This document shows positions 4,504 to 62,912 of a stretch of DNA of 64,000 nt, in pieces. The DNA is from an uncultured Bacilli bacterium. GTDB taxonomy: Bacteria; Bacillota_I; Bacilli_A; RF39; UBA660. Within the stretch, counting starts at the first letter, position 1. Each line of letters begins with the position of its first letter. The translations under genes and the position numbers were made by a program. A model generated the notes under the pieces. That model worked only from the letters and a program-made list of their open reading frames with translations, did not search any database and was not told the DNA's origin. The DNA lies in NCBI GenBank assembly GCA_944371905.1, contig CALVYA010000001.1, forward strand, positions 5,627 through 69,626, given 5' to 3'.

Positions 4504-6216
4504 ATGTTTAATGTAAACAAAGAAGAAAAAGAAATAATGGAGGAAAAATTTAATAAACCATGGCTCAAATATTATCAAGGAGATTTTGAACATGTAGATT
4601 ATTTTGATGGATCTTTATATGAAAAGATTTTAGATGTTTCAAGTAGGTTTCCTAATAATTATGCTTTAGAGTATTTTGGTAAAAAATATACTTATAAGCA
4701 AATGATAAATGAAATAGATAGAGTATCAATATCTCTTAATAATCTGGGAATTAAAGAAAATGATTATGTAACTATTTGTATGGTAAATTGTCCAGAAGCA
4801 ATTTTTACTTTTTATGCAATTAATAAAATAGGTGCTATTGCTAATATTATTCATCCTCTATCTAGTGAGAATGAAATAAAGCAATATTTAAAAGGGACAA
4901 AATCAACATGCATTTTCATTAGTGATTTTGTATATTATAAGTTAAAAAATATTAAAGTTAAGCAAGTAATTGTGGTTCCTATTGCTAATAGTATGAATAT
5001 GGTAATGAAAACACTTTATAATATTACAACGAAAAAGAAAAATAAAATACATGATTTACAGTCAAATACTATAGTGTGGAAAAAGTTTTTAACTAAAGGT
5101 AATGATAAAAATATTGATACTTTTAAGAAAAGAGAAAAAGATGATGATGCTGTTATTTTATATAGCGGAGGAACAACGGGTAAACCTAAAGGTGTAATTC
5201 TTACTAATCTTTGTTTTAATGCTGTTAGTAAACATTGCGATTTAATGGTTGATAACACTGATCCTGGAAATAGTATTTTATCCTATTTACCTATTTTTCA
5301 TGGATTTGGGTTAGCTATTTGTATTCATACTCCTTTATCTATTGGTATGAAATGTATTTTAATTCCTAAGTTAAATGTAAAGAAAATTAATAAAATTGTG
5401 GAAAAGACTAAACCAAATTTTTTGCCAGTAATTCCTTCTTTATTAGAAGTGATGGTAAAGGATAAAAAGGCTAGTAAAAAAGCTTTAAAAAGTGTTTTAT
5501 GTGTTTTGTCAGGTGGAGATTTTTTAAATATTGATTTAAAAACTAGAGCAGAAAAGTATTTAAAAGAACATGGTGCTAAGGCAGTAATTAGGATTGGATA
5601 TGGATTAACAGAAGTCACGGCTGCAACTTGTGTTAGTTTAGTAGAGAATTATCAAAAAGGTAGTATAGGAATTCCTTTTCCAGATACTTTATATAAAATT
5701 GTAAAAACTAATACTAATATTACGGCAGATATAAATGAAATAGGAGAGATTTGTATATGTGGTCCTACAGTAATGAAGGGGTATTTAAATGATCAAAATG
5801 AGACTTATAAAGCGATAAGAGTGCATGAAGATGGAAAGAAATGGCTTCATACTGGAGATTTGGGTAGAATGGATGAAAATGGAATTTTCTATTTTGAAAC
5901 AAGACTGAAAAGAATGATTATCTCTAATGGATGTAATATTTATCCAAATTACTTAGAAGAAATTTATAACAAGCATCCTCTGATAGAAACTTCAATTGTA
6001 GTGGGAATTCAGGATGATATCAAACAACAAGTGGCAAAAGCAATTATTGTTTTAAAAAAGAATATTAAATTAACCGAAGAAGTAAAAAATAATATTATTG
6101 AATATGCCAAAAAAAATATTGTAAAATATGCTTTACCTAAAGAATATGAATATGTTGATAGTTTACCGAAAACTCCAATCGGAAAAGTAGATTATAAAAA
6201 ATTTGAAAAAAAATAA
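4504..6216 (+). CDS. AMP-dependent synthetase/ligase (acyl-CoA synthetase-like)
   Basis: AMP-binding signature YSGGTTGKPKGV. GYGLTE and DLGRMDENG motifs match the adenylate-forming enzyme family. Confidence 0.8.
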   Translation: MFNVNKEEKEIMEEKFNKPWLKYYQGDFEHVDYFDGSLYEKILDVSSRFPNNYALEYFGKKYTYKQMINEIDRVSISLNNLGIKENDYVTICMVNCPEAIFTFYAINKIGAIANIIHPLSSENEIKQYLKGTKSTCIFISDFVYYKLKNIKVKQVIVVPIANSMNMVMKTLYNITTKKKNKIHDLQSNTIVWKKFLTKGNDKNIDTFKKREKDDDAVILYSGGTTGKPKGVILTNLCFNAVSKHCDLMVDNTDPGNSILSYLPIFHGFGLAICIHTPLSIGMKCILIPKLNVKKINKIVEKTKPNFLPVIPSLLEVMVKDKKASKKALKSVLCVLSGGDFLNIDLKTRAEKYLKEHGAKAVIRIGYGLTEVTAATCVSLVENYQKGSIGIPFPDTLYKIVKTNTNITADINEIGEICICGPTVMKGYLNDQNETYKAIRVHEDGKKWLHTGDLGRMDENGIFYFETRLKRMIISNGCNIYPNYLEEIYNKHPLIETSIVVGIQDDIKQQVAKAIIVLKKNIKLTEEVKNNIIEYAKKNIVKYALPKEYEYVDSLPKTPIGKVDYKKFEKK

Positions 6217-6282: not shown

Positions 6283-7185
<903 letters not shown>

Positions 7186-7302: not shown

Positions 7303-8094
7303 ATGAAAAGTGAAGATTTTAATAATTATTTGAAAAAATATCCAAGATTTTGTTACTTTATACTTCCTCATTTAACGGGTCCAACGGGAGCAATCGGACC
7401 AACAGGACCAACAGGACCAACGGGACCAACCGGAGCAACGGGAGCAATCGGACCAACCGGAGCAACGGGAGCAATTGGACCAACAGGACCAACCGGAGCA
7501 ACGGGAGCAACGGGAGCAATTGGACCAACAGGACCAACCGGAGCAATCGGACCAACAGGACCAATAGGAGCAACAGGACCAACCGGAGCAATTGGACCAA
7601 CAGGACCAACCGGAGCAACGGGAGCAACGGGAGCAATCGGACCAACCGGAGCAACAGGACCAATGGGAACTAGTGCAGTTCCTGAGTCGTTATCAACAGT
7701 AGATATTGCACCACAACCTGGTATTGCTAGTCAGCCATTATCTTTTAATATTAATACTGTAACATCAGGTCAATTGATTACACATGCTACGAATTCTCCT
7801 AATATTATAATTTCAGGTAATGGGATTTATCAAGTATTATTTAATGGAAGCATAGCCCCTTTCTCTAGTACTACTTTACCTGCTTCCATTGTTATTTATT
7901 TAACTACCAATGGTTCTATTAGTAATATAGGAGCTACACAAACGTTTACTTCTATAGAAACAGATACTATTTCTTTTCAGGGGTTAATTAAAATAACAAA
8001 TGCACCAGTTACTTTAAATGTTTTAGTAGAAAATTCTGGTTTTTTATTTAGCAATATTACTCTAACAGTTATTAGATTAGGAAATATTAGTTAA
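7303..8094 (+). CDS. BclA-like collagen-like exosporium glycoprotein, paralogue 2
   Basis: About 33 G-P/A-T and G-A-I triplets (9-bp tandem repeats 7378..7670), then a Thr/Ser/Asn-rich C-terminal beta domain. Tandem with 6313..7185. Confidence 0.75.
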
Positions 8095-20026: not shown

Positions 20027-21316
20027 ATGATAGATATTAAATTAATAAGAGAAAATAAAGAATTAGTAAAAGAAAATATTAAGAAGAAATTTCAAGATGA
20101 GAAATTACCTATCGTGGATGAAATCTATGAGATGGATAAAAGAGTTCGTGAAGTACAAACTAAAGTAGATGGATTAAAAGCAGATAAAAATAAAAAAAGT
20201 AGCGAAATAGGTAAATTAATGAAAGATAAAAAAATAGATGAAGCTAATAAAATTAAGGAAGAAATAGCTAATATGGCTTCTTCAATTACAGAGTTAGAAG
20301 AAGAGTTTACTTCTCTTTCAAAAGAGATTCACGATCGTATGATGGTAATACCAAATATTATGGATAAATCTGTACCAATAGGTAAGGATGACTCTGAAAA
20401 TGTAGAAATTGAAAGATTTGGGGAGCCCTTTGTTCCAGATTATGAAATACCATATCATTCTGATATATGTGAATCATTTAATGGCTTAGATAAAGAAAGT
20501 GCAGGAAGAACTAGTGGTAATGGTTTTTATTATTTAGTAGGGGATATTGCAAGACTTCATGAAGCAACGATTGCTTATGCAAGAGATTTTATGATTAATA
20601 AAGGTTTTACTTATTGCATTCCACCATTTATGATTAGAAGTGATGTAGTTACCGGTGTTATGTCTTTTGCTGAAATGGAAAACATGATGTATAAAATAGA
20701 AAATGAAGATTTATATTTAATTGGTACAAGCGAACACTCTATGATAGGTAAATTTAAGGGACAATTAATTAATGAAAAAGAATTACCAATAGCAATGACT
20801 TCTTATTCTCCATGTTTCAGAAAAGAAGTAGGAGCTCATGGATTAGAAGAAAGGGGACTTTATCGAGTTCATCAATTTGAGAAACAAGAGATGGTTGTTC
20901 TTTGTAAACCGGAAGAGGCAATGGATTGGTATAACAAAATGTGGAGTTATACAGTTGAATTTTTTAGAAGTTTAGACGTGCCTGTTAGAACTCTTGAATG
21001 TTGTAGTGGAGATTTAGCTGATTTAAAAGTGAAATCTTGTGATGTTGAGGCTTGGAGTCCAAGACAACAAAAGTATTTTGAGGTGGGATCTTGTTCTACT
21101 TTAGGAGATGCACAAGCAAGAAGATTAGGAATTAGAATGAAAACTGAAAACGGAAATCAATTCCTAGCGACTTTAAATAATACAGTAATTGCTAGTCCGA
21201 GATCACTTATTGCAATTCTAGAATGTGGTTATCAAAAGGACGGTAGTGTAAAAATACCAAAAGTTTTACAGCCTTATATGGGTGGTTTAGAAATCATAAA
21301 ACCAAAACAAAAATAA
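20027..21316 (+). CDS. serS: seryl-tRNA synthetase
   Basis: N-terminal coiled-coil arm and class II motifs (FRKEVGAHGLEERGLYRVHQFEKQE). 429 aa. Confidence 0.95.
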   Translation: MIDIKLIRENKELVKENIKKKFQDEKLPIVDEIYEMDKRVREVQTKVDGLKADKNKKSSEIGKLMKDKKIDEANKIKEEIANMASSITELEEEFTSLSKEIHDRMMVIPNIMDKSVPIGKDDSENVEIERFGEPFVPDYEIPYHSDICESFNGLDKESAGRTSGNGFYYLVGDIARLHEATIAYARDFMINKGFTYCIPPFMIRSDVVTGVMSFAEMENMMYKIENEDLYLIGTSEHSMIGKFKGQLINEKELPIAMTSYSPCFRKEVGAHGLEERGLYRVHQFEKQEMVVLCKPEEAMDWYNKMWSYTVEFFRSLDVPVRTLECCSGDLADLKVKSCDVEAWSPRQQKYFEVGSCSTLGDAQARRLGIRMKTENGNQFLATLNNTVIASPRSLIAILECGYQKDGSVKIPKVLQPYMGGLEIIKPKQK

Positions 21317-21509: not shown

Positions 21510-24500
21510 ATGAAAGGGAGTAGGGGTATGTTTAAGAAGAGATATTTTTTTGTATTTATTATAATTGTAGGTGTTTTAATAGGAGGAAAGCTATTATATC
21601 AAAGTACTATTAGTAAAAATTTATCTATAAATAGTATATTGTCAAGTTCCTCTTATTCTTATTTACCGAATGAAGCGAAAGAATATGTAATGGATGTTTA
21701 TAATGAGACAGGAGAGTTGATTTTAACAGAGAAGAATAAGAAAGCAAATACTCCCTATTTAAATCCACAGTATGTAGAATATTTGAAATTAAGTAAGCAA
21801 GAAAGAGCAGAACTTGATTTAATTCCTAATGTTTATAGCATAGATTATTTTGCTAGTTCTTCATCTGAGGTGTCAGAGTTACCAGAATCATATGATTTAA
21901 GAAATGTTGATGGTAATAATTACGTCGGTCCTTTAGAAAATCAAGCTAGTTCAGGATTGTGTTGGGCTTTTGCTACTTTAGGACAAGCAGAAAGTTATCT
22001 TATGATTCAAAATAATCAACCATATAATGATGCTACACAGACTTTTTCAGAAAGACAATTAGATTATGCAACTAGTAATAATGGAATATTAGATTATAAT
22101 AATAAATTTGGTAGTAGAGAGTTATTAGATGATGGAGCTAATTTTTCTGATGCCATAGAAATAATGGCGTATGGTTTGTCTTTAGTGGATGAAAGTTTAA
22201 TGCCGTTTGATGAGAATTCGGAACCTAAAAAATTAAGTGATGTTTTAAATTTCAACAATTCTTTATATGAGGTGGAACAAACAATTGAATTAGGTACTGC
22301 TGCTGGAAAAACAAGTTTGGAATATCAATATGGTAATATATGTTCAGAATATGATGCCGTTGATGAGTATGAAGAATTTGAGAACTGTATCAATGAGTAT
22401 CAAAACTCATTACAAGAGAGAATTTTATATGAGGCTAAGGATAATATCATGAAATACGGAGGCGCTTATGCTGGAACGATAAGTCCAAATTCTAGTTGTG
22501 CTTTTCAAAATAGTGATGGAAGTTATGTTATCAATGTTTCTTCGTCATGCTATTCCATTCAGGAAGGACATGCTATGCATGTTATTGGTTGGGATGATAA
22601 TTATGAGTATGAGTATTGTGATGCAGGTAAACATAATACATCTTTAGTAAATGGTGGTTGTGAAGAAGGGGAATTAACGAAAGGAAAAGGCGCTTTTATT
22701 TTAAAAAACTCTTGGGGTAATACAACAGACTATGGATATGTGTATTTAACGTATAATTCCTTTGATACTAGTGCATCAGCACCTCAATTTTCATATATTA
22801 CCTCTATGTCTAGTAACGAATTAAAAAATTGGGATAATTTTTATCCGATGGAACAAGATTATGGTAGTTATGTAGGATATAGCAAGAACGTTTCCGAAAC
22901 TTTTGAAAACAAACTAGGTGGAACAGAAAAACTAGAAAAAATAAAGTTTATTATTGGCTCATATGATTCTTCTTTTACTTTAACTATAACTTCTGGTGAA
23001 ACTGTTTATAGTGAAGAGATAACAAAAGAACATCCAGGAATTTATACAGTAGATTTATCTGATAAAGATATTTATATAGATAGTTTAGAAACTTTTACCG
23101 TAAGTATAAGTAGTGATGTTTCATATTTAACTAATGATTCTATTTCTGCCTATACTTCAAATGTGGATGAGATTCCAATTATACAAACAGAGGAGATCGT
23201 AACAGACGATTTGTCTTTTGTTGTTTATTCTGATACGAAAAATATAGATTCAGATGAATTAATTACGTATAAACTATATGATGGCAAGACAGAACTTGAA
23301 AATTATTTGGTAGTTAAAAATAATGAGGTAGCCGCTAACAATGTTAATGCCTCTATAGAAATTGTTGGAAAAATTGAAAAGGGCGAATATACATTAGTAC
23401 AAAGTTATCATGATTATTCATATCAAACAAAGTTAACATTGACAAAATCATATAATTTGGAGGGGGATGGCACCATTGATAGTCCTTATATTATAAACAA
23501 TCAAGATGAATTAAAATTAATGTCAGATAATTTGTCAGCTTATTATAAACTGAATAGCGATATTGTATTAACGGAAGATTGGACACCGGTAGGGACAATG
23601 GAAGAACCATTTACAGGTGGATTTGATGGTAATGGGCACACCATATCTAATTTAACATCAAATAGTACTAATTTAGATTATGTCGGCTTATTTGGATATG
23701 TTAATGCTTTAGAAAATAGACCTATATATTTTAAAAATATAACTATAAAAGATGCCAATATCAGTGGAACTAATGAAGCAGGAATATTGATAGGACATCT
23801 ACAAATTCAAAACAACTCTAATATTTTAATAGATTCTATTTATATGATTGATGGTTTTCTATCCGGTAATGATGCTGGTTCTCTCATTGGTTATATTCTT
23901 AATGAGGGATATAGTGAAATACCTGAATCATTCGTAGTAAATAATGTATTTTCTTCTGTTAACATATATAATTCTACTAATTCTGGAGTAATTGGGGTTA
24001 ATTATGCAGTTGATTGTAATATTGATTTTTCAAATATTCAAAATATAGGTATTACTTCAAGTAATATTGTTGGATTACCCGCAATGAATAAAAATAATGC
24101 ATTTATAGGGCAATTTGCTAAAAATTCTTATCATATTAATAGTTTTATATTTAGTGGTTTTACTAAAACGAATGATAGTATTTTCAATCACTTAATTCAA
24201 AGTTCAGATTTTAATGGTTCTAATGGATATTATCTAAAAATGAAAAATAATTCTTGGGATAGTAGTAATAGTAGTGTATATGCAGTAGATTCGGTATTAA
24301 ATTTAAAGAATAAGGACAACTATCAATCTTGGGAAAATTTTGATAAATATTGGAAAATAGAAGTTATTGATGGAATAACTAGGATACCAATATTAAAAGG
24401 TGTTAATATTCCATATACTACAATATCTGATATTAGTATTAATATTGGTGATACAGTATCACTTCTTGAATATATTACTCCAACAACTGATGCCAATAGA

Positions 24501-26276
24501 ATTTCTTATCAAATAAAAGATAATGATAATATAATCGAATTTAAGAATGTATATCAAGACGATAGTACTATTCCTACAGATATAACAATGAAAGGATTAG
24601 AATATGGAGAAGCAACAATACATATTGTAAGTAATTATGATGGATATGAAAAGGATATAAAAATTACTGTTGCTGACCCAGAAAAGACAACTATTATTTA
24701 TCATTCAAATGATAATAATGATGAAACATATATCCAAAAAGTTGAATTAAATACCAATTATCAGTTAATTGAAAATCCATTTGTAAATAACGGATATAAA
24801 TTTAAAAATTGGAATACTTCTGCTGATGGTAGTGGGGATGAGTATCACCCTTATAAAGAAATGAATGGAACAGAAGGTACTGTTCATTTATATGCCCAAT
24901 GGGAACCTATTACATATAAAGTGATTTTTCACTCAAATTATGATACTGATGAATTTATAGAACAAACCTTTACCTATAATAAAGAAGAGAAATTAATGAA
25001 AAACCCATTTACCAATGATGGAAGTGTATTTCTTGGATGGAATACAAAACCTGATGGTACAGGCGATTCTTATTCGGATAATCAATTGGTTAGTAATTTA
25101 GTATCCATAAATAATGGTGAAATTCATTTATATGCTAAGTGGTCTAAAAAAACATATGATGTAAATTATTTTTATAACTTAAAAGATAAGAGAGAATTGA
25201 TTGATTATGACACTTATGAGTACGATGAAGAATTTAAATTACTAGATATAGAAGATGAAACTGGTTATAAATTTATTGGTTGGGGAACAAATCCGGATGG
25301 AACAGGAACAAATTATTTAGTAAATGAAACTGTAAAAAACCTTACAACAAATTCCGAGATTAATTTATATACTATTTTTGAACCTATAACATATAAAGTA
25401 GTGTTTCATTCTAATCATAGTCTAGAAGAGGTAAAAGAACAAATATTTACTTACGATAACGAAGAAGAGTTATCTTCGAATACATTTGAAAGAATTGGTT
25501 ATAAATTTGTTGGATGGAATACCAAAAAAGATGGAAGTGGAACAACCTATAGCGATGAGCAAATTATAAAGAACTTAACTAACAATGATAATGAAACAAT
25601 AACTTTATATGCAATGTGGGAGAAAGAAATAAGAAAGATTATATATAACGCTAATAATGAAACAGACGAGTCAATAACAAAAGAATATCATTACGATGAG
25701 AAAATCACATTAGAAAAGAATCCGTTTACAAAAGAAGGTTATACCTTTAAAGAGTGGAATACTAAACAAGATGGAAGTGGAACGGCATATCAAAGCGAAG
25801 AAATTATTACAATAACCAAAGATATTACTTTATATGCCATATGGGAAGAAGAATTTGATTATATAATTAATAATTATCATGTAGATTATACTAATAATTA
25901 TATAAGTAAAGTGATTGTTAATACTACTGTTGATAAATTTAAAAACAATATTATTTTAGGTAGCGGATATAGCATAGATATTGAATATAGAGAAATAAAT
26001 AATAATAGAATAATATATACGGGAAGTAAAACTCAAATATATAAAGGAGATAAAATATATAAGGAATTTACTAATGTTGTAATAGGTGATATTAATGGTG
26101 ATGGTATGATTAATTCAGCAGATTTGCTTAGAGTAAGACAACATTTATTAGGTAGTATTTCATTAACTGGAATATATTTCTTATCTTCAGATATTAATTA
26201 TGATAATTCTATTAATTCAGCAGATTTGCTTAGAATAAGACAACATTTATTAGGTAGTAAGCCTATATCAGAATAA
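21510..26276 (+). CDS. large secreted multidomain protein: papain-like (C1) cysteine peptidase domain, middle beta-rich region, five Listeria-Bacteroides (Flg_new) repeats, and a C-terminal type-I dockerin
   Basis: N-terminal TM/signal helix. QASSGLCWAFATLGQ (papain Cys site) and NSWGNTTDYGYVYL (Asn-Ser-Trp). Repeats of the form YK(V/I)xFHSN...GYKFxGWNT...DGSG...LYAxW, x5. Terminal DINGDGMINSADLLRVRQHLLG and DINYDNSINSADLLRIRQHLLG, which are the two Ca-binding dockerin segments. Confidence 0.8.
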   Translation: MKGSRGMFKKRYFFVFIIIVGVLIGGKLLYQSTISKNLSINSILSSSSYSYLPNEAKEYVMDVYNETGELILTEKNKKANTPYLNPQYVEYLKLSKQERAELDLIPNVYSIDYFASSSSEVSELPESYDLRNVDGNNYVGPLENQASSGLCWAFATLGQAESYLMIQNNQPYNDATQTFSERQLDYATSNNGILDYNNKFGSRELLDDGANFSDAIEIMAYGLSLVDESLMPFDENSEPKKLSDVLNFNNSLYEVEQTIELGTAAGKTSLEYQYGNICSEYDAVDEYEEFENCINEYQNSLQERILYEAKDNIMKYGGAYAGTISPNSSCAFQNSDGSYVINVSSSCYSIQEGHAMHVIGWDDNYEYEYCDAGKHNTSLVNGGCEEGELTKGKGAFILKNSWGNTTDYGYVYLTYNSFDTSASAPQFSYITSMSSNELKNWDNFYPMEQDYGSYVGYSKNVSETFENKLGGTEKLEKIKFIIGSYDSSFTLTITSGETVYSEEITKEHPGIYTVDLSDKDIYIDSLETFTVSISSDVSYLTNDSISAYTSNVDEIPIIQTEEIVTDDLSFVVYSDTKNIDSDELITYKLYDGKTELENYLVVKNNEVAANNVNASIEIVGKIEKGEYTLVQSYHDYSYQTKLTLTKSYNLEGDGTIDSPYIINNQDELKLMSDNLSAYYKLNSDIVLTEDWTPVGTMEEPFTGGFDGNGHTISNLTSNSTNLDYVGLFGYVNALENRPIYFKNITIKDANISGTNEAGILIGHLQIQNNSNILIDSIYMIDGFLSGNDAGSLIGYILNEGYSEIPESFVVNNVFSSVNIYNSTNSGVIGVNYAVDCNIDFSNIQNIGITSSNIVGLPAMNKNNAFIGQFAKNSYHINSFIFSGFTKTNDSIFNHLIQSSDFNGSNGYYLKMKNNSWDSSNSSVYAVDSVLNLKNKDNYQSWENFDKYWKIEVIDGITRIPILKGVNIPYTTISDISINIGDTVSLLEYITPTTDANRISYQIKDNDNIIEFKNVYQDDSTIPTDITMKGLEYGEATIHIVSNYDGYEKDIKITVADPEKTTIIYHSNDNNDETYIQKVELNTNYQLIENPFVNNGYKFKNWNTSADGSGDEYHPYKEMNGTEGTVHLYAQWEPITYKVIFHSNYDTDEFIEQTFTYNKEEKLMKNPFTNDGSVFLGWNTKPDGTGDSYSDNQLVSNLVSINNGEIHLYAKWSKKTYDVNYFYNLKDKRELIDYDTYEYDEEFKLLDIEDETGYKFIGWGTNPDGTGTNYLVNETVKNLTTNSEINLYTIFEPITYKVVFHSNHSLEEVKEQIFTYDNEEELSSNTFERIGYKFVGWNTKKDGSGTTYSDEQIIKNLTNNDNETITLYAMWEKEIRKIIYNANNETDESITKEYHYDEKITLEKNPFTKEGYTFKEWNTKQDGSGTAYQSEEIITITKDITLYAIWEEEFDYIINNYHVDYTNNYISKVIVNTTVDKFKNNIILGSGYSIDIEYREINNNRIIYTGSKTQIYKGDKIYKEFTNVVIGDINGDGMINSADLLRVRQHLLGSISLTGIYFLSSDINYDNSINSADLLRIRQHLLGSKPISE

Positions 26277-26292: not shown

Positions 26293-27645
26293 GTGAAGAA
26301 AATAAAAATTCTATTCATGGGAATAGTTACAATAATTACCTTATTTATCTTAAATACAGATGTGTTTGCTGCATCAGCTAGTTTATCCGCTAGTACTAGT
26401 AGTGTGTATGTTGGAGATCGATTTACGGTATCTGTTCATGTGAATGCGGCTGCTTGGAATGTGCATACCTCTGTTAGTGGGCCTGTAAGTGGTTGTATCA
26501 TTAATCAAGCAGATGCATCTATGGATGCAATGAATACTAATAAAACATTTACAGCTACTTGTACAGCAACAGGGGAAGGTACAATTACTGTTACTTTATA
26601 TGGTGATGTAACGGGTGATACAGATATTTATGCTACGCAGGTATCAGGTACTAGGAAGGTAACTGTATCTAAAAGACCTACTTCATCTGGTAATAATAAC
26701 AATAATAACCATAATACAAATACAACTGGAGGCAATAATTATAATAATAATACGCCTTCAAAATCTACTAATAACAAAATAAAAGAAATTTCTGTAGAAG
26801 GTTATGATTTAGTTAAAAAAGATGCTAATCATTATACATTAACTGTACCTACGGATGTAACAAGTATTAATGTTAAAGTAACTGCAGAAGATGCTAAAGC
26901 TAAAGTAACAGGAGTAGGGAATCATAATTTAAATATAGGAGATAATAATATTGAAGTTATTATTACTTCCGAGTCTGGTAGCCAAAACAAAATAAATATT
27001 AAAGTTATAAGAAAAGATGGATATTATTTGGAAGACTTAGAAGATGTATTAAATAATGATACTATTGATGAAGTTAATGTTAATATTTTATCAGATACTA
27101 TCATCAGTTCTGAAGAATTAAATAAAATAAAGAGTAGTAAAAAAATAGTTCATTTCAATTATAATAATAATGGTCGGTTACTGTATTCTTGGATTATAGA
27201 TGGTTCCTTAATAGATAATACTGTTGATATATTAACTACTATTTCTTATGATAGTGATAATAAGGCTACTATGTTAAGATTATCTAATTATGCAGATGGT
27301 TTATTTATAAGTGCTAGTGGTTCTAATAATATGCCTAAGGAAACGAAAATCAAATTATATGTTGGTGATAAATATAGTGATGGAGAATTAGTTAATGTTT
27401 ATTCTTATTCTAAGGATAATGAAAAATTAATTTTAGGACAAAGTGATTTAAAAGTGAAGGATGGTTATATAGTATTTGATGCTAGCGAAGCAGACGATTA
27501 TCTAGTTACTATGTCTAATATTTCTTCTGTTGATGACACTACTTCATCTAGTAATTTAGTTTATATAATAATTATTAGTTTGCTATTGTTAGTAATAGCG
27601 GTGCTTTCCTTCTTTCTAATTAAAAAGATGAAAAATAAGAAATAA
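26293..27645 (+). CDS. C-tail-anchored surface protein with cadherin-like beta-sandwich domain(s) and possible N-terminal cohesin-like domain
   Basis: Signal peptide, Asn-rich linker, cadherin-like repeat (KEISVEGYDL...TAEDAKAKVTGVG...NNIEVIITSESGSQNKINIKVIRKD). C-terminal TM helix followed by KKMKNKK. Starts 17 nt after the dockerin protein's stop. Confidence 0.55.
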   Translation: MKKIKILFMGIVTIITLFILNTDVFAASASLSASTSSVYVGDRFTVSVHVNAAAWNVHTSVSGPVSGCIINQADASMDAMNTNKTFTATCTATGEGTITVTLYGDVTGDTDIYATQVSGTRKVTVSKRPTSSGNNNNNNHNTNTTGGNNYNNNTPSKSTNNKIKEISVEGYDLVKKDANHYTLTVPTDVTSINVKVTAEDAKAKVTGVGNHNLNIGDNNIEVIITSESGSQNKINIKVIRKDGYYLEDLEDVLNNDTIDEVNVNILSDTIISSEELNKIKSSKKIVHFNYNNNGRLLYSWIIDGSLIDNTVDILTTISYDSDNKATMLRLSNYADGLFISASGSNNMPKETKIKLYVGDKYSDGELVNVYSYSKDNEKLILGQSDLKVKDGYIVFDASEADDYLVTMSNISSVDDTTSSSNLVYIIIISLLLLVIAVLSFFLIKKMKNKK

Positions 27646-36143: not shown

Positions 36144-36560
36144 TTATATTCCACTAACGAATGTATCTGTTAAACATCTTAATGCTCCAACACAGTTTAA
36201 GTTAATTGTAAAGAAATCATTGGTTGAAATATATGGAAAACTAGTTGCTTCGTTAGTATCTGGATTAGGTGCTAATACTCTAAATGTTGCACAATTGTCA
36301 TCTAAGTTTTCAATTCTAAATACGGTACTTGTACCAGTAGTTCCATTTAATGTGTATGGTAATGACCAAAGTTCATTATTAGAACAATTATATAGAGTAA
36401 TAGGTCTAGTATTTAGGCATATACCACTTGGAGTAGGCCCTAGAAATGGTTTGGTACATCCTGTTGGACAATCGCAATCTTCTCCTTTTTGTTGTAATGT
36501 CAGAATTAATTCTAAAGTTTTAATAAAAGAACAAGAACATTCATTATTATTTCCACACAT
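36144..36560 (-). CDS. CotZ/CotY/ExsY-family cysteine-rich spore coat / exosporium protein
   Basis: Cys-rich 138 aa. EDCDCPTGC, NTRPIT..Y.C.NN, STVFRIENLDDNCATFRVL and INLNCVGALRCL align with recalled B. subtilis CotZ (EDCPTGC...NTVFFRVERV...C...DCFCAINCL). Confidence 0.7.
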   Translation of the reverse strand: MCGNNNECSCSFIKTLELILTLQQKGEDCDCPTGCTKPFLGPTPSGICLNTRPITLYNCSNNELWSLPYTLNGTTGTSTVFRIENLDDNCATFRVLAPNPDTNEATSFPYISTNDFFTINLNCVGALRCLTDTFVSGI

Positions 36561-36575
36561 AATTATCCCCCTTTC

Positions 36576-36989
36576 TTATAAATCTACAATAGTATCAGCT
36601 AAACATTTTAATACACATACGCACCCTAAATTAATAGTTGCAGTATTTCTTGTTGTAATATATGGTCTTATAGTATCTGTGGTATCAGGATTAGGGATTA
36701 AGATAGATACTACTAAACATCCATCCTCTACACTTTCTACTCTAAAAATACTACTGGTTCCTGTTAATCTTTCTCCATTAATTACTGTATCATAATTAAG
36801 GGAAATTAAGTTATTGTTACATCCATAAAATGTGATGGGTCTTGTATTAAAACAAAGACTAGGCATATCTACACCTAAAAATGGTCTGCTACAAGTATTA
36901 TCAAAACATTCTTCTTTTTCTGAACTATGTTGTAAAATATCAATTACTTTTAAAATTTTAGTAAAGCAACAACAATTACTACTCATCAA
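36576..36989 (-). CDS. CotZ/CotY/ExsY-family cysteine-rich spore coat / exosporium protein, tandem paralogue
   Basis: 137 aa, same motif series (CSRPFLG, NTRPITFYGC, SSIFRVESVEDGC, INLGCVCVLKCL). 15 nt upstream of its paralogue, so an operon. Confidence 0.7.
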   Translation of the reverse strand: MMSSNCCCFTKILKVIDILQHSSEKEECFDNTCSRPFLGVDMPSLCFNTRPITFYGCNNNLISLNYDTVINGERLTGTSSIFRVESVEDGCLVVSILIPNPDTTDTIRPYITTRNTATINLGCVCVLKCLADTIVDL

Positions 36990-43797: not shown

Positions 43798-44262
43798 ACT
43801 AAATTCCGTTTTTTAACGAAATTTTTTCTTTTTCATATTAATTACCGTTTTTATAACGATAAACGGAAATAAACTTGATAAAAATTCTAATTTTAACGAA
43901 TAATTATATAAATTATTCCACGACAAAAATACGGAGGTTATTTCCGTTTTTCAAACTTATTGCCGTTTTTTAAATATTACTAGAATAGTAAAGAGTTTAA
44001 AAACTGCATTTATCTATTGATAACAAACAAAGATGGACTTTGTTTGTGTTACTTATTATAATCAATGAAATTTAAAAATCAAGGGTTTTATAAACTCATT
44101 TCATTCGCCCTTGATTTTACATTTCATTATACTATAATCAGACTTATTGCCGTTTTTTTAATAAAGCGGAATTCCAAATGAAAATTAACGATACGTAATT
44201 AAAACTAATTAAAAGAGTAGTAATTACTCTTTTTTTTTGTTATAATTTTAAAAGGTGGTATT
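43798..44262. repeat. 465-bp non-coding region with at least five direct copies of ATTNCCGTTTTT and two strong hairpins
   Basis: Motif copies at about 43802, 43841, 43940, 43961 and 44146, plus an inverted copy at 43857. Hairpin acaaacaaag-atgga-ctttgtttgt near 44021..44050. Stem aatcaaggg / cccttgatt with a 24-nt loop at about 44077. Confidence 0.5.
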
Positions 44263-45390
44263 ATGATATATTTAGATTATTCTGCAACAACTCCTGTGAA
44301 TGAAGAAGTATTAGATACATTTGTAAAAGTATCACGTGATTTTCCAGGAAATCCTAATTCTCTACATAGTCTAGGAGTATCTTCAAGAGAGTTAATAGAT
44401 GCTTCTACTAAACAAATAGCAGATATCCTAAAAGTAAAACCTAGTGAAATTATTTATACTAGTGGAGCTAGCGAATCTAATAATACAGCAATCAAAGGAA
44501 TTTGCTTACAATATCAAAATAGAGGTAAACATATCATTACAACTAATTTTGAACATTCTTCTATTTATGGACCAATTAGTTATTTGCAAACATTAGGTTT
44601 TGAAGTAGATTTTGTAAAAACAGATGCTAATGGAATTGTTGATTTAGATGATCTAAAAAGTCTTTTAAGAGATGATACTATTTTAGTATCAATTACAGCT
44701 GTAAATAGTGAAATAGGAATTGTAGAACCTATTGAAGAGATAGGGAAAATATTAAAAGATTATCCTAAGTGTTTTTTTCATTCTGATTTAACTCAAATAA
44801 TAGGGAAAAAAGAAATTAATTTAGAAAATGTTGATTTAGCTAGTTTTTCTGCTCATAAATTCTTTGGATTAAAAGGAATAGGAGGACTTATAAAAAAAGA
44901 CAAGATAAATTTAGTACCGTTAATTCACGGGGGAAAGAGTACGACTATTTATAGAAGTGGAACCCCAGCAGTAGCACTTATTGCATCTTTTGCTAAAGCT
45001 TTAAGATTGGCTTATGTTGATATAGAGAAACATTATAATTATGTTACCAAACTAAATAATATGGTGAAAGAAGAACTTGAAAAATATTCAAACATCCATA
45101 TTAATAGTAATAATAAATGCTCACCATATATATTAAATCTTAGTGTGATGGGAATAAAACCGGAGACCATGCTTCATGCTTTGGAAGAAGAAGAGATATT
45201 TATATCAACACAGACAGCATGTTCTAGTGGTAATTCTTATTCGAAAGCAGTATATAGTTTAACTAATGATAAAGAATTAGCATCTAGCAGTATTCGTATA
45301 AGTTTATCTTATGTTACTAAAGAAGAAGAAATAAAAATATTTTTAGATAAATTTATCAAGATAGTCGATAAATTATCATTAAGGAGTTAA
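44263..45390 (+). CDS. cysteine desulfurase (class V aminotransferase, NifS/IscS-like)
   Basis: LDYSATTPV N-terminus, PLP-lysine motif SFSAHKFFG, active-Cys loop QTACSSGNS. 375 aa. Confidence 0.8.
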   Translation: MIYLDYSATTPVNEEVLDTFVKVSRDFPGNPNSLHSLGVSSRELIDASTKQIADILKVKPSEIIYTSGASESNNTAIKGICLQYQNRGKHIITTNFEHSSIYGPISYLQTLGFEVDFVKTDANGIVDLDDLKSLLRDDTILVSITAVNSEIGIVEPIEEIGKILKDYPKCFFHSDLTQIIGKKEINLENVDLASFSAHKFFGLKGIGGLIKKDKINLVPLIHGGKSTTIYRSGTPAVALIASFAKALRLAYVDIEKHYNYVTKLNNMVKEELEKYSNIHINSNNKCSPYILNLSVMGIKPETMLHALEEEEIFISTQTACSSGNSYSKAVYSLTNDKELASSSIRISLSYVTKEEEIKIFLDKFIKIVDKLSLRS

Positions 45391-45391
45391 T

Positions 45392-45655
45392 ATGAAAATA
45401 ATAAAAATAAATGCTATGTGGTGCAGTGGTTGTTTATCTATGCATAAAATATGGAAAAAAATTGAGGAAGAATATCAAGATATAGAAATTATTACTTATG
45501 ATTATGATATGGATGAAGATATTGTGAAAACATATAATGTGGGAAATATTTTGCCGGTTGCTATATTTTATGATAACAATGAAGAAGTAGCTAGATTAAA
45601 TGGTGAGAAGAGTAAAGAAGAAATAGAAGAAGTAATTAATAAATACAGTAGGTGA
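45392..45655 (+). CDS. small thioredoxin-fold protein (CSGC active site)
   Basis: 87 aa with WCSGC redox motif. Start is 1 nt after the desulfurase stop. Confidence 0.6.
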   Translation: MKIIKINAMWCSGCLSMHKIWKKIEEEYQDIEIITYDYDMDEDIVKTYNVGNILPVAIFYDNNEEVARLNGEKSKEEIEEVINKYSR

Positions 45656-45660
45656 TGTTT

Positions 45661-46863
45661 GTGAAGAAATTTTTAATTTTATTAATTGCATTATTACTAG
45701 TAATACCAACAAGTGTAAATGCTAGCGAGACAGTAATTGATATTTATTTATTTTATTCTAATACCTGTCCTCATTGTGCTAGAGAAAAAGAATATTTAAG
45801 TGATTTGCAAGAGAATGATCCTAATATTAATGTCTATATGTATGAAGTAAGTGAGAATCAAGATAATAGTGATCTTTTGGATAAAGTACAAACATTAATT
45901 GATGGAGAGACTCCTTATATACCATATACAGTTATAGGTAGCCAGTATCGAGTTGGTTTTAATAATTCAACTAAATTAGAAATAGAGAATATTATAAAGA
46001 CATATCGTGAAGGTGGGTATGTTAATGTTGTTGGAGGAATCATTGATGGCAGTATAACCGAAGATAATATAAATACTTATTTGGAAGAAAGTGAAGTAGA
46101 GGTGGATGATACTGTAGATATTCCACTTTTAGGTAAGGTAGATCCAAAAAGTGTTAGCCTACCAATTCTTTCTATAGTAATGGGGCTTGTTGATGGATTT
46201 AATCCATGTGCTATGTGGGTATTAATATTTTTAATTAGTATGTTACTTAATATGAAAGATAAGAAAAGAATGTGGTTTTTAGGGGTATCTTTCTTACTAA
46301 CTTCATCGATGGTATATCTTTTATTTATGTTAGCATGGTTAAATATTGTTATGAGTATATCAGAAATAAGATGGGTTCAAATATTAATTGCTTTAGTTGC
46401 AGTAATAGGGGGATTAATCAATTTACGAAGTTATTATCGTGAACGTAAGAAAGACGCTGGATGTGTTGTAGTAAATGATGAGAAAAGAAAGAAAATATTT
46501 GATAGAATAAAGAAGTTTACGCATGAGAAAAGTATTATTTTAGCAACCATTGGTGTAATTGCTTTAGCGGTATCAGTAAATATTGTAGAACTTGCTTGTT
46601 CAGCAGGATTACCCGTGTTATTTACTAATATTTTAGCAATTAATAATTTAGATCAAACAGTCTCAATCATTTATATTTTAATTTATGTGTTCTTCTTTAT
46701 GTTAGATGACTTAATTGTTTTTGCTGTTGCTATGTTTACACTACAAGTTACAGGAGTAACTACGAAATATACAAAATATACTCACTTAATAGGTGGAATA
46801 ATCATGTTATTAATAGGATTATTACTAATTATTAAACCGGAGTGGATTATGTTTAATTTTTAG
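45661..46863 (+). CDS. extracytoplasmic thioredoxin-like domain fused to a CcdA/DsbD-type transmembrane electron-transfer domain
   Basis: Signal peptide. CPHC thioredoxin motif. Membrane domain with the two conserved CcdA cysteines (FNPCAMWVL and ELACSAGLP). The most plausible start is GTG 45661 (MKKFLILL...), 6 nt after SD AGGTGA. The track start at 45652 overlaps the upstream stop. Confidence 0.7.
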   Translation: MKKFLILLIALLLVIPTSVNASETVIDIYLFYSNTCPHCAREKEYLSDLQENDPNINVYMYEVSENQDNSDLLDKVQTLIDGETPYIPYTVIGSQYRVGFNNSTKLEIENIIKTYREGGYVNVVGGIIDGSITEDNINTYLEESEVEVDDTVDIPLLGKVDPKSVSLPILSIVMGLVDGFNPCAMWVLIFLISMLLNMKDKKRMWFLGVSFLLTSSMVYLLFMLAWLNIVMSISEIRWVQILIALVAVIGGLINLRSYYRERKKDAGCVVVNDEKRKKIFDRIKKFTHEKSIILATIGVIALAVSVNIVELACSAGLPVLFTNILAINNLDQTVSIIYILIYVFFFMLDDLIVFAVAMFTLQVTGVTTKYTKYTHLIGGIIMLLIGLLLIIKPEWIMFNF

Positions 46864-46912: not shown

Positions 46913-46957
46913 AAAAGCGCTAGTACAGGCTTTAATAGGGTACTTGCGCTTTTTTGT
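46913..46957 (+). terminator. rho-independent terminator
   Basis: Stem aaagcgctagtac / gtacttgcgcttt followed by a T-run. Confidence 0.55.
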
Positions 46958-46975: not shown

Positions 46976-47956
46976 ATGAATATTTTAGCAAAGGAACAAA
47001 AGATGATTTTTGAAGAAGGAATCACTAGTGAAGAAAGAGAAAAACGTAAAGAAGAATTTTTAAAATTATATTATCAATTAAGAGAACAAAATGATGATAA
47101 GTTTTATAGTAAATTGACTTTGGCCCAAAGAGAGAAGATCCACAAATATATTCTTTTAGTATATAAAACAAAAAATAGATTTGGTGGTTTTTCCTATGAT
47201 TTAATCAAAGATGAAAGAGAAAAAACGGATAGACCAATTATTTTTGCTATAACTCATGTTGGAAAGTTTGATATAGAAGTTGTAAGTGAACCAATAAAAG
47301 AACATTATTACTTATTATCTGGAGATTTTGAACATATTCAGGGAATCATTGATGCACCTTTTTTGGGATTAAATGGGGTTATATATTTTAATGAAATAGT
47401 AAAAGAAGATCGCGTCAATGCAACAAATAAAATGATCGAACTTTTAAAAGAAAATGGGAATCTAATGTATTTTCCAGAAGGAACATGGAATCTTTCTCCT
47501 AATTTACCAGTTCTTCCATGTTATTGGGGAATTGTTGATGTAGCAAGAAAGGGGAATGCCATAATAGTCCCTGTTGCGGCTGAACAATATGGTAAGCATT
47601 TTAAAGTTAATATAGGTAAAAATATTGATATGAATTTGTATGGGGAAGGAACTCTTGAAAAAACAAGGGCAATTAATGATTTGAGAGATACTTTAGCTAC
47701 TTTAAAATGGGAAATATGGGAAAGTATGCCTATTCAAAAAAGAAATGAATTACCAGAAGATACTTGGACACAATACATTGAAAACAGATTTAGCGAATGG
47801 CCATATTTCAATACAGAGTACATTAATAGGTTAATTTACAAACCTAAAGATGTTGTAGAAAGAGAAGAAGTTTATGGTCCAGTAAAAAAACTAATACCGA
47901 ATAGAAATAATGCATTTTTATATAATAAAAGATTAAAAGATAATATTTTTGATTAG
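46976..47956 (+). CDS. lysophospholipid acyltransferase (LPLAT/PlsC-like) family protein
   Basis: HxxxxD motif (ITHVGKFD) and FPEGT motif (MYFPEGTWN) of glycerolipid acyltransferases. 326 aa. Confidence 0.55.
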   Translation: MNILAKEQKMIFEEGITSEEREKRKEEFLKLYYQLREQNDDKFYSKLTLAQREKIHKYILLVYKTKNRFGGFSYDLIKDEREKTDRPIIFAITHVGKFDIEVVSEPIKEHYYLLSGDFEHIQGIIDAPFLGLNGVIYFNEIVKEDRVNATNKMIELLKENGNLMYFPEGTWNLSPNLPVLPCYWGIVDVARKGNAIIVPVAAEQYGKHFKVNIGKNIDMNLYGEGTLEKTRAINDLRDTLATLKWEIWESMPIQKRNELPEDTWTQYIENRFSEWPYFNTEYINRLIYKPKDVVEREEVYGPVKKLIPNRNNAFLYNKRLKDNIFD

Positions 47957-61364: not shown

Positions 61365-62912
61365 GTGAGTTATATGAAAAGGAAAAAGGGGATTTTATTA
61401 TTAGTAGTAGGATTACTTATATTAATTCCATCTATTGTTTTAGCAGCGCAACCGACAGTTGAATTATCAGGAGTTTTAAATGCTAAACCTGGTGATACTG
61501 TAGCGTATGATATTAAGATTAATTCTTCAGGGGATACACGTGCTTCTAAATATGAAGCTAATTTAGAGTATGATCAGAATATTCTTGAATTAAAAAGTAT
61601 AACCGCTAAATCTTGGACGAAAGAAAGCGGTTCTAGTGATTTAAATTTCTCATATCAAGATGGAATTTCTGGAAGTTCTACTATTGCTACTATCACTTTT
61701 AAAGTTAAGGATAACGTTCCAAAACAAACAACTAATATTGCTTTAAAAGATATTAAGATTACAACTTTAGATGAAGAAGATAGTTCAAGTATTGTCACTA
61801 TTTCGGAAAATGCTTCTCATAAGGTATCTTTATCTGTTAAGTCAACAGATAATACTTTAAAAGATTTAAAAGTCGATGGTAAAACAATAGAAGATTTTAA
61901 AAAAGATAATTATGAGTATGAATTATCGGTTTCTTCTGATACTGATGAAGTAGAAATAAAAGCAACACCAACAAACGCTAATGCAACATTTGAAGAGGGA
62001 TTTGGTAATAGAGATGTTAAATTAGACTATGGAGAAAATGAAGTTTTAATAAAAGTGAAAGCAGAATCTGGTGAAATTCAGGTATATAAATTACTAATTA
62101 CTCGTGAAGATGATCGTAATACTAATAATGATTTAAAAGAAATTATTATTAATTCTGGTAGAATAAAATTAGAACTATCTAAAAATAAAGTTAATTATAC
62201 AATTAAAACTTACAAATTAAAAGAGTTAGAAATCGATGCTGTGCCAGTGGATGAAAAAGCAAAAGTAGAAATAGAAATACCTGATGAAATAATAGTTGGA
62301 GATAATGTAGTTACTATAACAGTAACTAGTGAAACTGGTGAGGAAAAAGTTTATACTTTAACATTTGAAAATAGTGATAAAGAATTAGATACTAAATTAA
62401 AAAATTTATATATCAAAGGTTATAATATTGATTTTGATAAAAATACGATGGTTTACCAAATTGTGTACAATAAAAAATATAAAAATGGATTAGATTTTAG
62501 TATTGTTACAGCTGATGATGAAGAGTTAGTTGGATATACTATTTTCTATAATGGAGAAGAAGTAACAGATGATACTAATATTTCTTTAAAACCTGGAGAT
62601 AAGTATGAAATTCGAGTATATCCACTAGGTTTGGAAGAAGGAGATAGTAGTGAGACTACTACTTATACAATTGAAATAGTAAAAGATAAACGTGTTAGCT
62701 TTTTCTTAATTTTAGAAATTTTAATTGCTTTAGTATTGTTTGTATTAATAATTGTTCAAGTTGTAAAAAGAAATAAAAAACGTAAAAACAACGCTAATCA
62801 AGAGAACAATAATAATGTAGTATCTAATGAAAAATTGCAAGAAGAAGTAAATAAAACAAAAGTAATTGATACAGATGAATTAAATAAAATAAATGAATTA
62901 GATAAAGAATAG
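61365..62912 (+). CDS. C-tail-anchored surface protein: N-terminal cohesin domain plus cadherin-like beta-sandwich repeats
   Basis: Signal peptide. The segment TVELSGVLNAKPGDTVAYDIKIN...LEYDQNILEL...IATITFKVKDN matches the type-I cohesin pattern (compare recalled CipA NAKPGDTVRIPV...YDPNVLEI...FATIVAKVK). Then about 4 cadherin-like repeats. C-terminal TM followed by KRNKKRKNN. Confidence 0.65.
   Translation: MSYMKRKKGILLLVVGLLILIPSIVLAAQPTVELSGVLNAKPGDTVAYDIKINSSGDTRASKYEANLEYDQNILELKSITAKSWTKESGSSDLNFSYQDGISGSSTIATITFKVKDNVPKQTTNIALKDIKITTLDEEDSSSIVTISENASHKVSLSVKSTDNTLKDLKVDGKTIEDFKKDNYEYELSVSSDTDEVEIKATPTNANATFEEGFGNRDVKLDYGENEVLIKVKAESGEIQVYKLLITREDDRNTNNDLKEIIINSGRIKLELSKNKVNYTIKTYKLKELEIDAVPVDEKAKVEIEIPDEIIVGDNVVTITVTSETGEEKVYTLTFENSDKELDTKLKNLYIKGYNIDFDKNTMVYQIVYNKKYKNGLDFSIVTADDEELVGYTIFYNGEEVTDDTNISLKPGDKYEIRVYPLGLEEGDSSETTTYTIEIVKDKRVSFFLILEILIALVLFVLIIVQVVKRNKKRKNNANQENNNNVVSNEKLQEEVNKTKVIDTDELNKINELDKE

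Follow-up and report, generated by a model that had tools for sequence, protein, structure and literature searches.

A conserved desulfurase–thioredoxin–membrane protein operon of uncultured gut Bacilli as a possible transmembrane thiol–disulfide relay

Inspection of a 64,000-nt stretch of contig CALVYA010000001.1 from an uncultured Bacilli bacterium (positions 5,627 to 69,626 of the forward strand; hereafter, the window) revealed three tightly packed genes at 44263–46863 that code for a NifS-like cysteine desulfurase, a mini-thioredoxin of 87 amino acids (aa), and a fusion protein in which a CxxC domain, predicted to lie outside the cytoplasm, precedes a membrane domain with six transmembrane (TM) segments. 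This operon is conserved across dozens of uncultured gut Bacilli. We tentatively favour, at somewhat less than even confidence, the view that it encodes a transmembrane thiol–disulfide relay that would resemble DsbD and CcdA in action and derive from a different, unannotated membrane family.

The three plus-strand open reading frames (ORFs) span 44263–45390, 45392–45655 and 45652/45661–46863, exactly where the initial annotation had placed them, in a window that is AT-rich (GC content ~27%). They are separated by 1 nt and, with the start at 45661, by about 5 nt. At the first junction, the NifS stop codon TAA (45388–45390) is followed after a gap of 1 nt by the thioredoxin ATG (45392), whose Shine–Dalgarno (SD) sequence AAGGAG (45381–45386) lies within the 3′ end of NifS. 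At the second, the mini-thioredoxin terminates with TGA at 45653–45655, and the fusion gene offers three in-frame start options: GTG 45652 (4-nt overlap), ATG 45655 (TGATG) and GTG 45661. The last of these is the likeliest true start, giving a 400-aa product, because AGGTGA (45650–45655) sits 5 nt 5′ of it, homologues open with MKK, and a public gene call likewise uses 45661 (400-aa protein P0003). The 1-nt gap and the overlapping or SD–GTG junction bear out the tight coupling proposed at the outset, and the packing is repeated across relatives.

Sequence signals on either side delimit the operon. Upstream, a plus-strand hairpin (44211–44238) with a 9-bp perfect stem (AAAAGAGTA/TACTCTTTT) and the loop GTAAT runs into a T9 tract and looks like an intrinsic terminator, which would shield the operon from upstream transcription. 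It abuts an extended –10 promoter on the same strand, read from the sequence (TGtTATAAT, 44238–44246; TATAAT at 44241–44246), and the leader is very short, with the NifS SD AGGTGG at 44253–44258 and the ATG at 44263. The ~50 nt directly 5′ of NifS show 90.6% conservation in one relative (L001), and the order terminator, TGnTATAAT, ~10-nt spacer, AGGTGAT and ATG recurs 5′ of NifS in many or most related loci; here as in the relatives, the operon promoter looks like a housekeeping-type TGnTATAAT. A leader riboswitch, T-box or attenuator was considered and rejected, as Rfam returned no riboswitch or T-box match in the NifS leader and the cross-locus comparison shows an upstream terminator and a conserved extended –10 promoter. 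Downstream, a second terminator-like hairpin on the plus strand (46916–46955; AGCGCTAGTAC … GTACTTGCGCT, 10 of 11 pairs, 13-nt loop, then T6) probably closes the unit; it was found by reading the sequence, our hairpin scan with a loop limit of 8 nt having passed over it. Another gene, with an SD of its own, begins at 46976, and the whole has the appearance of a self-contained three-gene unit under a housekeeping-type promoter.

The 466-nt spacer 5′ of the operon (window positions 43798–44210) carries TTATTKCCGTTTTT five times in direct and once in inverted orientation. Exact copies of TTNCCGTTTTT occur four times in the window, all inside this spacer, against 0.2 expected, and the spacer further contains additional hairpins (e.g. 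44023–44047) and promoter-like sites. It is kept only in two same-species contigs (L086, L087) and might represent a small RNA, an array for protein binding or a decayed element.

Conservation of the neighbourhood was assessed by a genome scan that yielded at least 597 loci, the best 80 of which were used (one per species; 42–74% identity to the fusion protein of the window). Their labels are mostly those of metagenome-assembled genomes (MAGs) of Bacilli, Tenericutes, Mollicutes, ‘Mycoplasma sp. CAG’ and Erysipelotrichaceae, with some of Patescibacteria type. Clustering of the ORFs across these loci produced three dominant groups, namely the fusion (81 members), the mini-thioredoxin (76) and NifS (63), the next largest cluster comprising 14. 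The mini-thioredoxin lies just 5′ of the fusion in 75 of the 80 loci, often overlapping it, and among the 71 loci whose sequence extends far enough, NifS is found upstream 60 times, 54 of them directly adjoining the thioredoxin. With these cluster sizes and median ORF gaps of 0 and –4 nt across loci, the tight packing is not due to chance. Occurrence of the same triad on independent metagenome contigs adds to these counts, and the neighbourhood that the initial annotation had singled out is clearly conserved among relatives.

By comparison, the flanking genes vary by locus (ABC transporter, TruB, YqeY, MutL, SDF symporter, QueH-like proteins), and in at least five loci NifS is separated from the thioredoxin by an unrelated gene, which encodes a dCMP deaminase or a pentapeptide-repeat protein. 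Genes recurring 5′ of NifS (ABC transporter, FtsX, TruB, YqeY, MutL, hydrolase) were rejected as partners, being unrelated housekeeping genes. Also rejected was a link to cystine uptake via the SDF symporter found downstream in at least five loci, since its matches to generic DctA/GltP/SstT models fell far below the cut-offs and there was no TcyP-specific signal. A literature search for the three-gene arrangement or for the membrane family returned nothing relevant.

The first gene (44263–45390, plus strand) encodes a 375-aa protein that Pfam, NCBIfam and solved structures identify as a class-I IscS/NifS-type cysteine desulfurase dependent on pyridoxal 5′-phosphate (PLP). It matches Pfam Aminotran_5 (PF00266) at 4.4e-67 (227 bits) and solved cysteine desulfurases at 3e-69. 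Matches to the NCBIfam IscS, NifS and DndA models reached 3e-90 and ~300 bits against equivalog cut-offs of 480–643, so the protein cannot be assigned by sequence to any one of these equivalogs. All 62 operon-linked homologues retain H98, D175, Q178, K199 (the PLP lysine), C320 (the catalytic cysteine) and R345. With the Aminotran_5 fold, PLP lysine and catalytic cysteine all in place, gene 1 is by these sequence markers a class-I cysteine desulfurase that appears active, much as the initial annotation had described it.

Likewise, the second gene (45392–45655, plus strand) lives up to its description as a mini-thioredoxin with a CSGC motif. The 87-aa product (active site WCSGC) matches Thioredoxin PF00085 above the cut-off (8.3e-12; 45.5 bits vs. 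23.5) over profile positions 22–102 of 103, and PDB thioredoxins align to it from about residue 20 onward. Compared with a canonical thioredoxin, it is accordingly shorter by about 19 residues at the N-terminus, where beta1–alpha1 is missing, and stays below the TIGR01068 equivalog cut-off (42.8 vs. 96.8). No signal sequence was found in it, consistent with a cytoplasmic location. WCxxC (GCxxC in three cases) is present in 76 of 76 homologues, with a variable middle pair (SG, SS, PA, SA, PG and others) that is the canonical GP in none of the 76, and the cis-proline loop LPV is conserved. By profile score, WCxxC and cis-proline, the protein is assigned to the thioredoxin family.

The third gene (45652–46863, plus strand) encodes the fusion, of 403 aa from GTG 45652 or 400 aa from GTG 45661. 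A hydrophobic N-terminus ending VNA|SE reads as a signal peptide (residues 1–24) and is followed by an acidic 145-residue region with the CPHC motif and by six hydrophobic segments. The glutaredoxin (Grx)-like CPHC domain takes up residues 29–120 (DNA 45736–46011), a linker with a beta-hairpin extends to residue 167, and the six-TM domain occupies residues 168–403 (DNA 46153–46860), containing C186 (DGFNPC, TM1), C271 (cytoplasmic loop) and C316 (NxxELACSAGLP, TM4). Because of the signal peptide, the acidic nature of the CPHC domain and the K/R clusters in the loops 199–207, 263–294 and 367–377, which lie on the opposite side, the CPHC domain is predicted to face outside and C271 inside. On signal peptide and charge distribution, the topology prediction therefore places the domain outside the cytoplasm, as first claimed.

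In an AlphaFold (AF2) model of the fusion built from 133 homologues (mean predicted local distance difference test score, pLDDT, 84.3), residues 29–120 adopt a glutaredoxin fold (b1a1b2a2b3b4a3, ~92 residues), followed by a beta-hairpin linker and six long helices, with TM1 broken at 182–184, just before C186, and TM4 broken at 318, just after C316. C39, H41, C42, P91, D181, C186, C271, C316, N310, E313 and D352 are invariant in the fusion alignments; N184 is invariant in part of them and D353 is conserved. The membrane cysteines C186 and C316, ~130 residues apart, are invariant throughout alignments of 59–133 diverse sequences, so that the central claim of an extracytoplasmic CxxC domain joined to a two-cysteine membrane domain holds.

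The specific label of the outer domain, ‘TlpA/StoA-like’, had to be revised. In the PDB it comes closest to A. fulgidus Grx-1 (3ic4, which also has CPHC) and MJ0307-type thioredoxin; among profiles, Glutaredoxin and the YruB-family Grx-like model match best, the latter in 40 of 59 diverse members (best 2.6e-12), and weaker matches point to the secreted disulfide isomerases TrbB, TraF and PedC. ResA and DsbE models matched only 2–3 of the 59 members, at E > 0.01. A TlpA/ResA/StoA-type (Redoxin/AhpC-TSA) domain was rejected on these grounds and on the ~92-residue modelled fold; the outer domain is predicted, from sequence and model alike, to have a short glutaredoxin/YruB-like fold.

Two further observations concern this domain. 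A separate secreted CPHC Grx-like protein adjoins the fusion gene in L032 (6004–6468) and, with a C-terminal membrane anchor, in L045 (4975–5487), which suggests a duplicate or split-off outer domain and that the domain can act in trans. In addition, longer fusion variants of 530–574 aa (P0124, P0144, P0179, P0188, P0191, P0196–P0198, P0235) have an additional N-terminal thioredoxin-fold domain (Pfam Glutaredoxin and Redoxin), i.e. two outside redox domains in series, reminiscent of multi-domain DsbD.

In layout, the membrane domain resembles the conduits of CcdA, DsbD-beta and ScsB-beta. These have one membrane cysteine in TM1 and one in TM4, ~120–130 residues apart and essential in CcdA/DsbD, and they take from a cytoplasmic thioredoxin and give to an extracytoplasmic thioredoxin-fold CxxC domain, an arrangement that by analogy the operon would reproduce. 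The characteristic CcdA fold (PDB 5VKV) is an inverted 3+3 repeat of six TM segments in which TM1 and TM4 are discontinuous. TM1 of DsbD runs from out to in after an external N-terminal domain, as predicted for the fusion. C186 has the Pro–Cys context (NPC), comparable to the [ST]PC of TM1 in aligned DsbD sequences, whereas C316 is preceded by Ala with Pro at +5 (ELACSAGLP in place of PCxxP in TM4 of DsbD). A low-stringency, statistically non-significant hhalign alignment with E. coli DsbD matched C186 to the cysteine of TM1 and C316 to the CSPC motif of TM4, and one fusion homologue bears the IMG label ‘CcdA/glutaredoxin’. Differences from DsbD extend to the donor, here a dedicated truncated thioredoxin encoded next door, to the small N-terminal Grx fold, and to the lack of a C-terminal gamma domain.

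The family reaches well beyond the Bacilli. A second search, seeded from a Shapirobacteria-labelled locus, found thousands of relatives with the source labels Patescibacteria, Pacebacteria, Minisyncoccales, Peribacteraceae, ‘hypothetical’ and ‘thioredoxin family protein’. An exhaustive search with the membrane domain alone returned 476, 1270 and 2690 clusters at 50% identity for E-values of 1e-30, 1e-10 and 1e-3, respectively. Nearly all of these relatives carry an N-terminal region of ~160 residues; few are stand-alone (~245 aa) and some reach 530–570 aa. Patescibacteria-type loci have as neighbours ZIP, FeoAB, a CDF exporter, ZnuABC with a Fur-family regulator, DUF134/DUF5320, YibE/F and ArsR–ArsP_1–Thioredoxin_3. 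ZIP adjoins the thioredoxin–fusion pair or the membrane domain in seven loci (L021, L023, L041, L042, L089, L099, L102) and lies 5′ of NifS in two Bacilli loci, while FeoAB occurs in L098 and, at a distance of ~1.5 kb on the downstream side, in three Erysipelotrichaceae loci. The mini-thioredoxin is replaced in L101 by a glutaredoxin and a thioredoxin-reductase-like flavoprotein, both encoded directly 5′ of the fusion. The thioredoxin–fusion pair is the core module common to Bacilli and Patescibacteria, to which NifS is added in gut Bacilli.

Some of these neighbours recur as larger assemblies. A super-cluster of ZIP/FeoAB/CDF, DUF5320, DUF134, YibE/F, mini-thioredoxin and fusion was seen in L098, L099, L066, L080, L041, L042, L089 and L102, relatives labelled Patescibacteria or of unstated taxonomy, and lies opposite ZnuABC–Fur in L099; it looks like a metal-homeostasis island with uncharacterised DUF134/DUF5320 regulators and YibE/F. 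Modules of ArsR (HTH_5), Thioredoxin_3 and an ArsP_1 permease adjoin the fusion gene in L101 (1023–5221), L088 (7194–9600) and L072 (1001–1888).

With the order and coupling of the genes, their conservation, the identity of the domains, the conserved cysteines, and the predicted topology and fold established, we infer a direction of flow, a donor, targets and any mechanistic role for NifS. In the relay that we favour, thioredoxin reductase would presumably reduce the WCxxC of the mini-thioredoxin, which would in turn reduce a C186–C316 disulfide of the membrane domain, C271 perhaps serving as a docking or relay thiol. The membrane cysteine pair would then reduce the outer CPHC domain, and the latter would act on targets at the cell surface. 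NifS might be linked to this path by a shared cysteine/thiol economy, or the mini-thioredoxin might also resolve the NifS persulfide, both of which are guesses; its attachment may also simply mean that a housekeeping sulfur donor is co-expressed with thiol chemistry of the envelope. We favour the relay because CxxC thioredoxin folds with a cis-proline (the invariant P91 outside, LPV inside) flank a membrane domain with two invariant buried cysteines and a dedicated cytoplasmic partner, and because a Grx and TrxB-like pair stands in for the mini-thioredoxin in L101. Resemblance of the outer domain to Grx-like reductases and to TrbB, TraF and PedC supports it further, as do the mini-thioredoxin gene just 5′ of the fusion in 75 of 80 loci and in Patescibacteria, the IMG label ‘CcdA/glutaredoxin’, the non-significant placement of C186 and C316 on DsbD cysteines, and a single weak DsbD_2 match (below).

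A number of results weigh against this reading, most of them touching the membrane domain. Pfam and NCBIfam scans left the membrane domain of the window fusion unmatched, and in Pfam scans of the family (79 and 59 members, E-value limits 1 and 0.1) DsbD (PF02683) matched 0 of 79 and 0 of 59, and DsbD_2 (PF13386) 1 of 59, at 3.9e-4 and below any curated cut-off. In hhalign comparisons, probabilities for the membrane domain stayed <1% whether the target was DsbD of E. coli, an Erwinia DsbD-like protein or a DsbD/ScsB profile made from seven plasmid-encoded sequences, a whole-protein profile aligned the thioredoxin domains only (4.9%), and a search by hhalign for an internal 3+3 repeat detected none. 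A membrane-only profile searched against PDB sequences returned nothing at E ≤ 10, and the top 50 Foldseek hits were Trx/Grx matches only. Conserved D181, N184, N310, E313, D352 and D353, near the membrane cysteines, are missing from aligned DsbD/ScsB sequences, and the fusion differs from DsbD also by its cytoplasmic-loop C271. As to genomic context, the Patescibacteria-type loci keep the thioredoxin–fusion pair with NifS not adjacent and with neighbours that are mostly metal transporters or regulators; L102 has a stand-alone membrane domain beside two ZIP genes with no thioredoxins nearby; and the relay leaves NifS without a necessary role.

Sequence membership in DsbD/CcdA is rejected, given that Pfam, NCBIfam, hhalign and the PDB sequence search were all negative, and for the same reason the likeness to CcdA is one of layout. 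The ‘CcdA/DsbD membrane domain’ of the initial annotation therefore stands as an arrangement, with invariant cysteines in TM1 and TM4 placed between a CxxC domain outside and a thioredoxin in the cytoplasm, and falls as a family assignment, no profile method recognising it. By sequence, the domain represents an unannotated, sizeable family. Its assignment to Gap/Sap (SfLAP, PF11139) was also turned down, as matches were sporadic and sub-threshold (5 of 79 and 1 of 59 members, best 8.6e-7) and none involved the window fusion. A genuine CcdA gene, sought as a control in ~100 relative loci, occurred in none except the proteobacterial plasmid control loci.

The metal genes suggest the main rival, which we consider unlikely, namely that a membrane domain of LysE-superfamily type transports a soft metal such as Fe2+ or Zn2+ by way of a Cys/Asp/Glu/Asn site, while ligand exchange hands the ion between the outer CPHC domain and the cytoplasmic WCxxC protein, as MerP, MerT and NmerA do with Hg2+; in Bacilli, metal would then be supplied beside NifS, e.g. 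for Fe–S assembly. ZIP, FeoAB, CDF, ZnuABC–Fur, ArsR–ArsP_1 and DUF134/DUF5320 adjoin the pair or the membrane domain, and D181, E313, D352, D353 and the invariant His of CxHC would suit metal ligation. Moreover, the strongest of the weak profile matches are to SfLAP, a LysE-clan family, rather than to DsbD, and many members of the LysE superfamily are metal transporters with acidic TM1/TM4 motifs. Both soluble partners are, however, ordinary redox-type thioredoxin folds with cis-proline and W/CxxC, and we know of no precedent for a thioredoxin as a metallochaperone of this kind. The TrxB-like and Grx pair 5′ of the fusion in L101 points to electron flow, and metal neighbours are compatible with a reductant conduit, as dsbD, too, adjoins copper genes (cutA–dsbD in E. 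coli; a copper-binding protein on plasmids). A different cargo, sulfane sulfur, which the initial annotation had raised as persulfide, would pass from the NifS persulfide to the mini-thioredoxin, on to C271 and the membrane cysteines, and to the outer CPHC, being exported to or imported from the cell surface. Such a path would account for the co-transcription of NifS and the pair, seen in 60 of 71 Bacilli loci (54 directly adjoining), and for a continuous chain of cysteines that includes the conserved one in the cytoplasmic loop; YeeE/YeeD-type thiosulfate uptake, with a cysteine-lined membrane protein and a small cytoplasmic cysteine partner, sets a precedent. We nonetheless hold it to be improbable, as the pair, C271 included, is kept in Patescibacteria without NifS nearby, at least five loci have unrelated genes that set NifS apart from the thioredoxin, and none of TusA, rhodanese, SufE/SufU or DsrE is among the annotated neighbours. 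Framed more broadly, and doubtful as well, the proteins could form an unrecognised family of cysteine-lined membrane transporters, represented in Patescibacteria and gut Bacilli by hundreds of clusters at 50% identity, that move thiophilic cargo (Fe/Zn or sulfane sulfur), not electrons alone, between CxxC proteins and, together with NifS, make up a minimal sulfur/metal supply line for Fe–S or thio-cofactor assembly in genome-reduced anaerobes.

Electrons might also run the opposite way. In quinone-less anaerobes, electrons from surface thiols could enter via a CPHC oxidase or isomerase and reach, through the mini-thioredoxin, an acceptor such as the NifS persulfide, releasing H2S. NifS would thereby gain a role as electron sink, the outer domain does resemble the disulfide isomerases TrbB, TraF and PedC, and the active sites of DsbA and PDI carry CPHC and CGHC motifs, the His being invariant in the fusion family. 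The CPHC motif leaves the direction of flow unsettled, though, because it is common to oxidising DsbA and to the MJ0307-type proteins, which are low-potential reductases with CPHC in a Grx-like fold. As the TrxB-like neighbour in L101 fits reduction, we see only a slim chance for inward flow. Least probable, in our view, is the sporulation-specific, StoA/CcdA-type reductive pathway for the spore cortex, operating in the forespore intermembrane space, that the initial annotation had envisaged. CotZ-like genes and two collagen-repeat proteins of the exosporium kind in the window, and a BclA_C protein near the locus in one relative, would be in keeping with a host that may sporulate. The outer domain is, however, predicted to be Grx-like and not TlpA/ResA/StoA-like, the promoter appears to be the conserved housekeeping-type extended –10, and none of the 80 loci shows a sporulation gene linked to the operon. 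The thioredoxin–fusion pair is, besides, abundant in genomes labelled Patescibacteria, a group not known to sporulate.

Several characterised systems invite comparison. B. subtilis CcdA–ResA/StoA and S. pneumoniae CcdA–Etrx–MsrAB2 consist of a separate CcdA and membrane-anchored thioredoxins. These Firmicutes systems share with the operon a Gram-positive envelope, a thiol path from cytoplasm to outside, and an outside CxxC acceptor. Their acceptors are of TlpA/ResA type (Redoxin/AhpC-TSA) and separately encoded, with the general TrxA as donor, whereas the operon has a fused Grx-like acceptor and a dedicated, co-transcribed donor, and it has no linked genes for cytochrome c, Msr or the cortex. 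M. tuberculosis DipZ and proteobacterial DsbD/ScsB, like the fusion, combine a thioredoxin fold and a membrane conduit in one polypeptide, plasmid-borne examples being a ‘thioredoxin family protein’ (L094) and DsbD-domain proteins (L093, L095, L096). They have a true DsbD-type membrane domain with a C-terminal Trx or an N-terminal immunoglobulin-like domain, in contrast to the Grx-like domain and different membrane family seen here. Six TM segments, discontinuous TM1 and TM4, and acidic residues at the helix breaks are reminiscent of the Gap/Sap (SfLAP) family and the LysE superfamily; Gap/Sap is not known to have paired TM cysteines or thioredoxin partners. The series MerP–MerT–NmerA similarly lines up an outside CxxC protein, membrane cysteines, a cytoplasmic-loop cysteine and a cytoplasmic CxxC acceptor, but MerP (a ferredoxin-like HMA fold) and MerT (three TM segments) are unrelated in fold to the operon proteins, and no mer genes are linked to the operon.

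While the desulfurase and the thioredoxin are ordinary members of their families, the membrane family is unannotated, and neither the conserved triad nor its links to metal genes appeared in the literature searched. If the relay is real, it would add a fourth architecture to the transmembrane thiol conduits DsbD, ScsB and CcdA, extending a known principle and overturning none, and it would reveal how Patescibacteria and uncultured gut Bacilli, mostly anaerobic and genome-reduced, handle the thiols of their envelope. The membrane domain lies outside Pfam, NCBIfam and solved structures and is widespread in Patescibacteria and uncultured gut Bacilli. The association with NifS in Bacilli and with Fe/Zn transporters in Patescibacteria suggests that envelope thiol chemistry is tied to metal and sulfur supply, a link of which we found no description in the literature searched. 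With three genes and five key cysteines, the system is small.

Elsewhere in the window, a minus-strand pair of CotZ-like spore-coat genes (36144–36989) and two plus-strand genes for collagen triple-helix repeat proteins (6313–7185 and 7303–8094), which account for a local GC bump of 0.38, suggest a spore-forming host that has an exosporium-like layer; NCBIfam sporulation equivalogs were found for none of the M23 and M50 peptidases and CotZ-like ORFs. A plus-strand T-box leader (RF00230; 19422–19611; 94.8 bits vs. a gathering score of 93) is located just 5′ of the seryl-tRNA synthetase gene (20027–21316). Further along the plus strand, a 1588-aa surface protein (21510–26276) combines a papain-like C1 peptidase with Listeria–Bacteroides repeats and a type I dockerin, and is accompanied by cadherin-like and cohesin-bearing proteins (26293–27645 and 61365–62912, plus strand), which together look like a cohesin–dockerin surface assembly in a gut Bacillus-class MAG.

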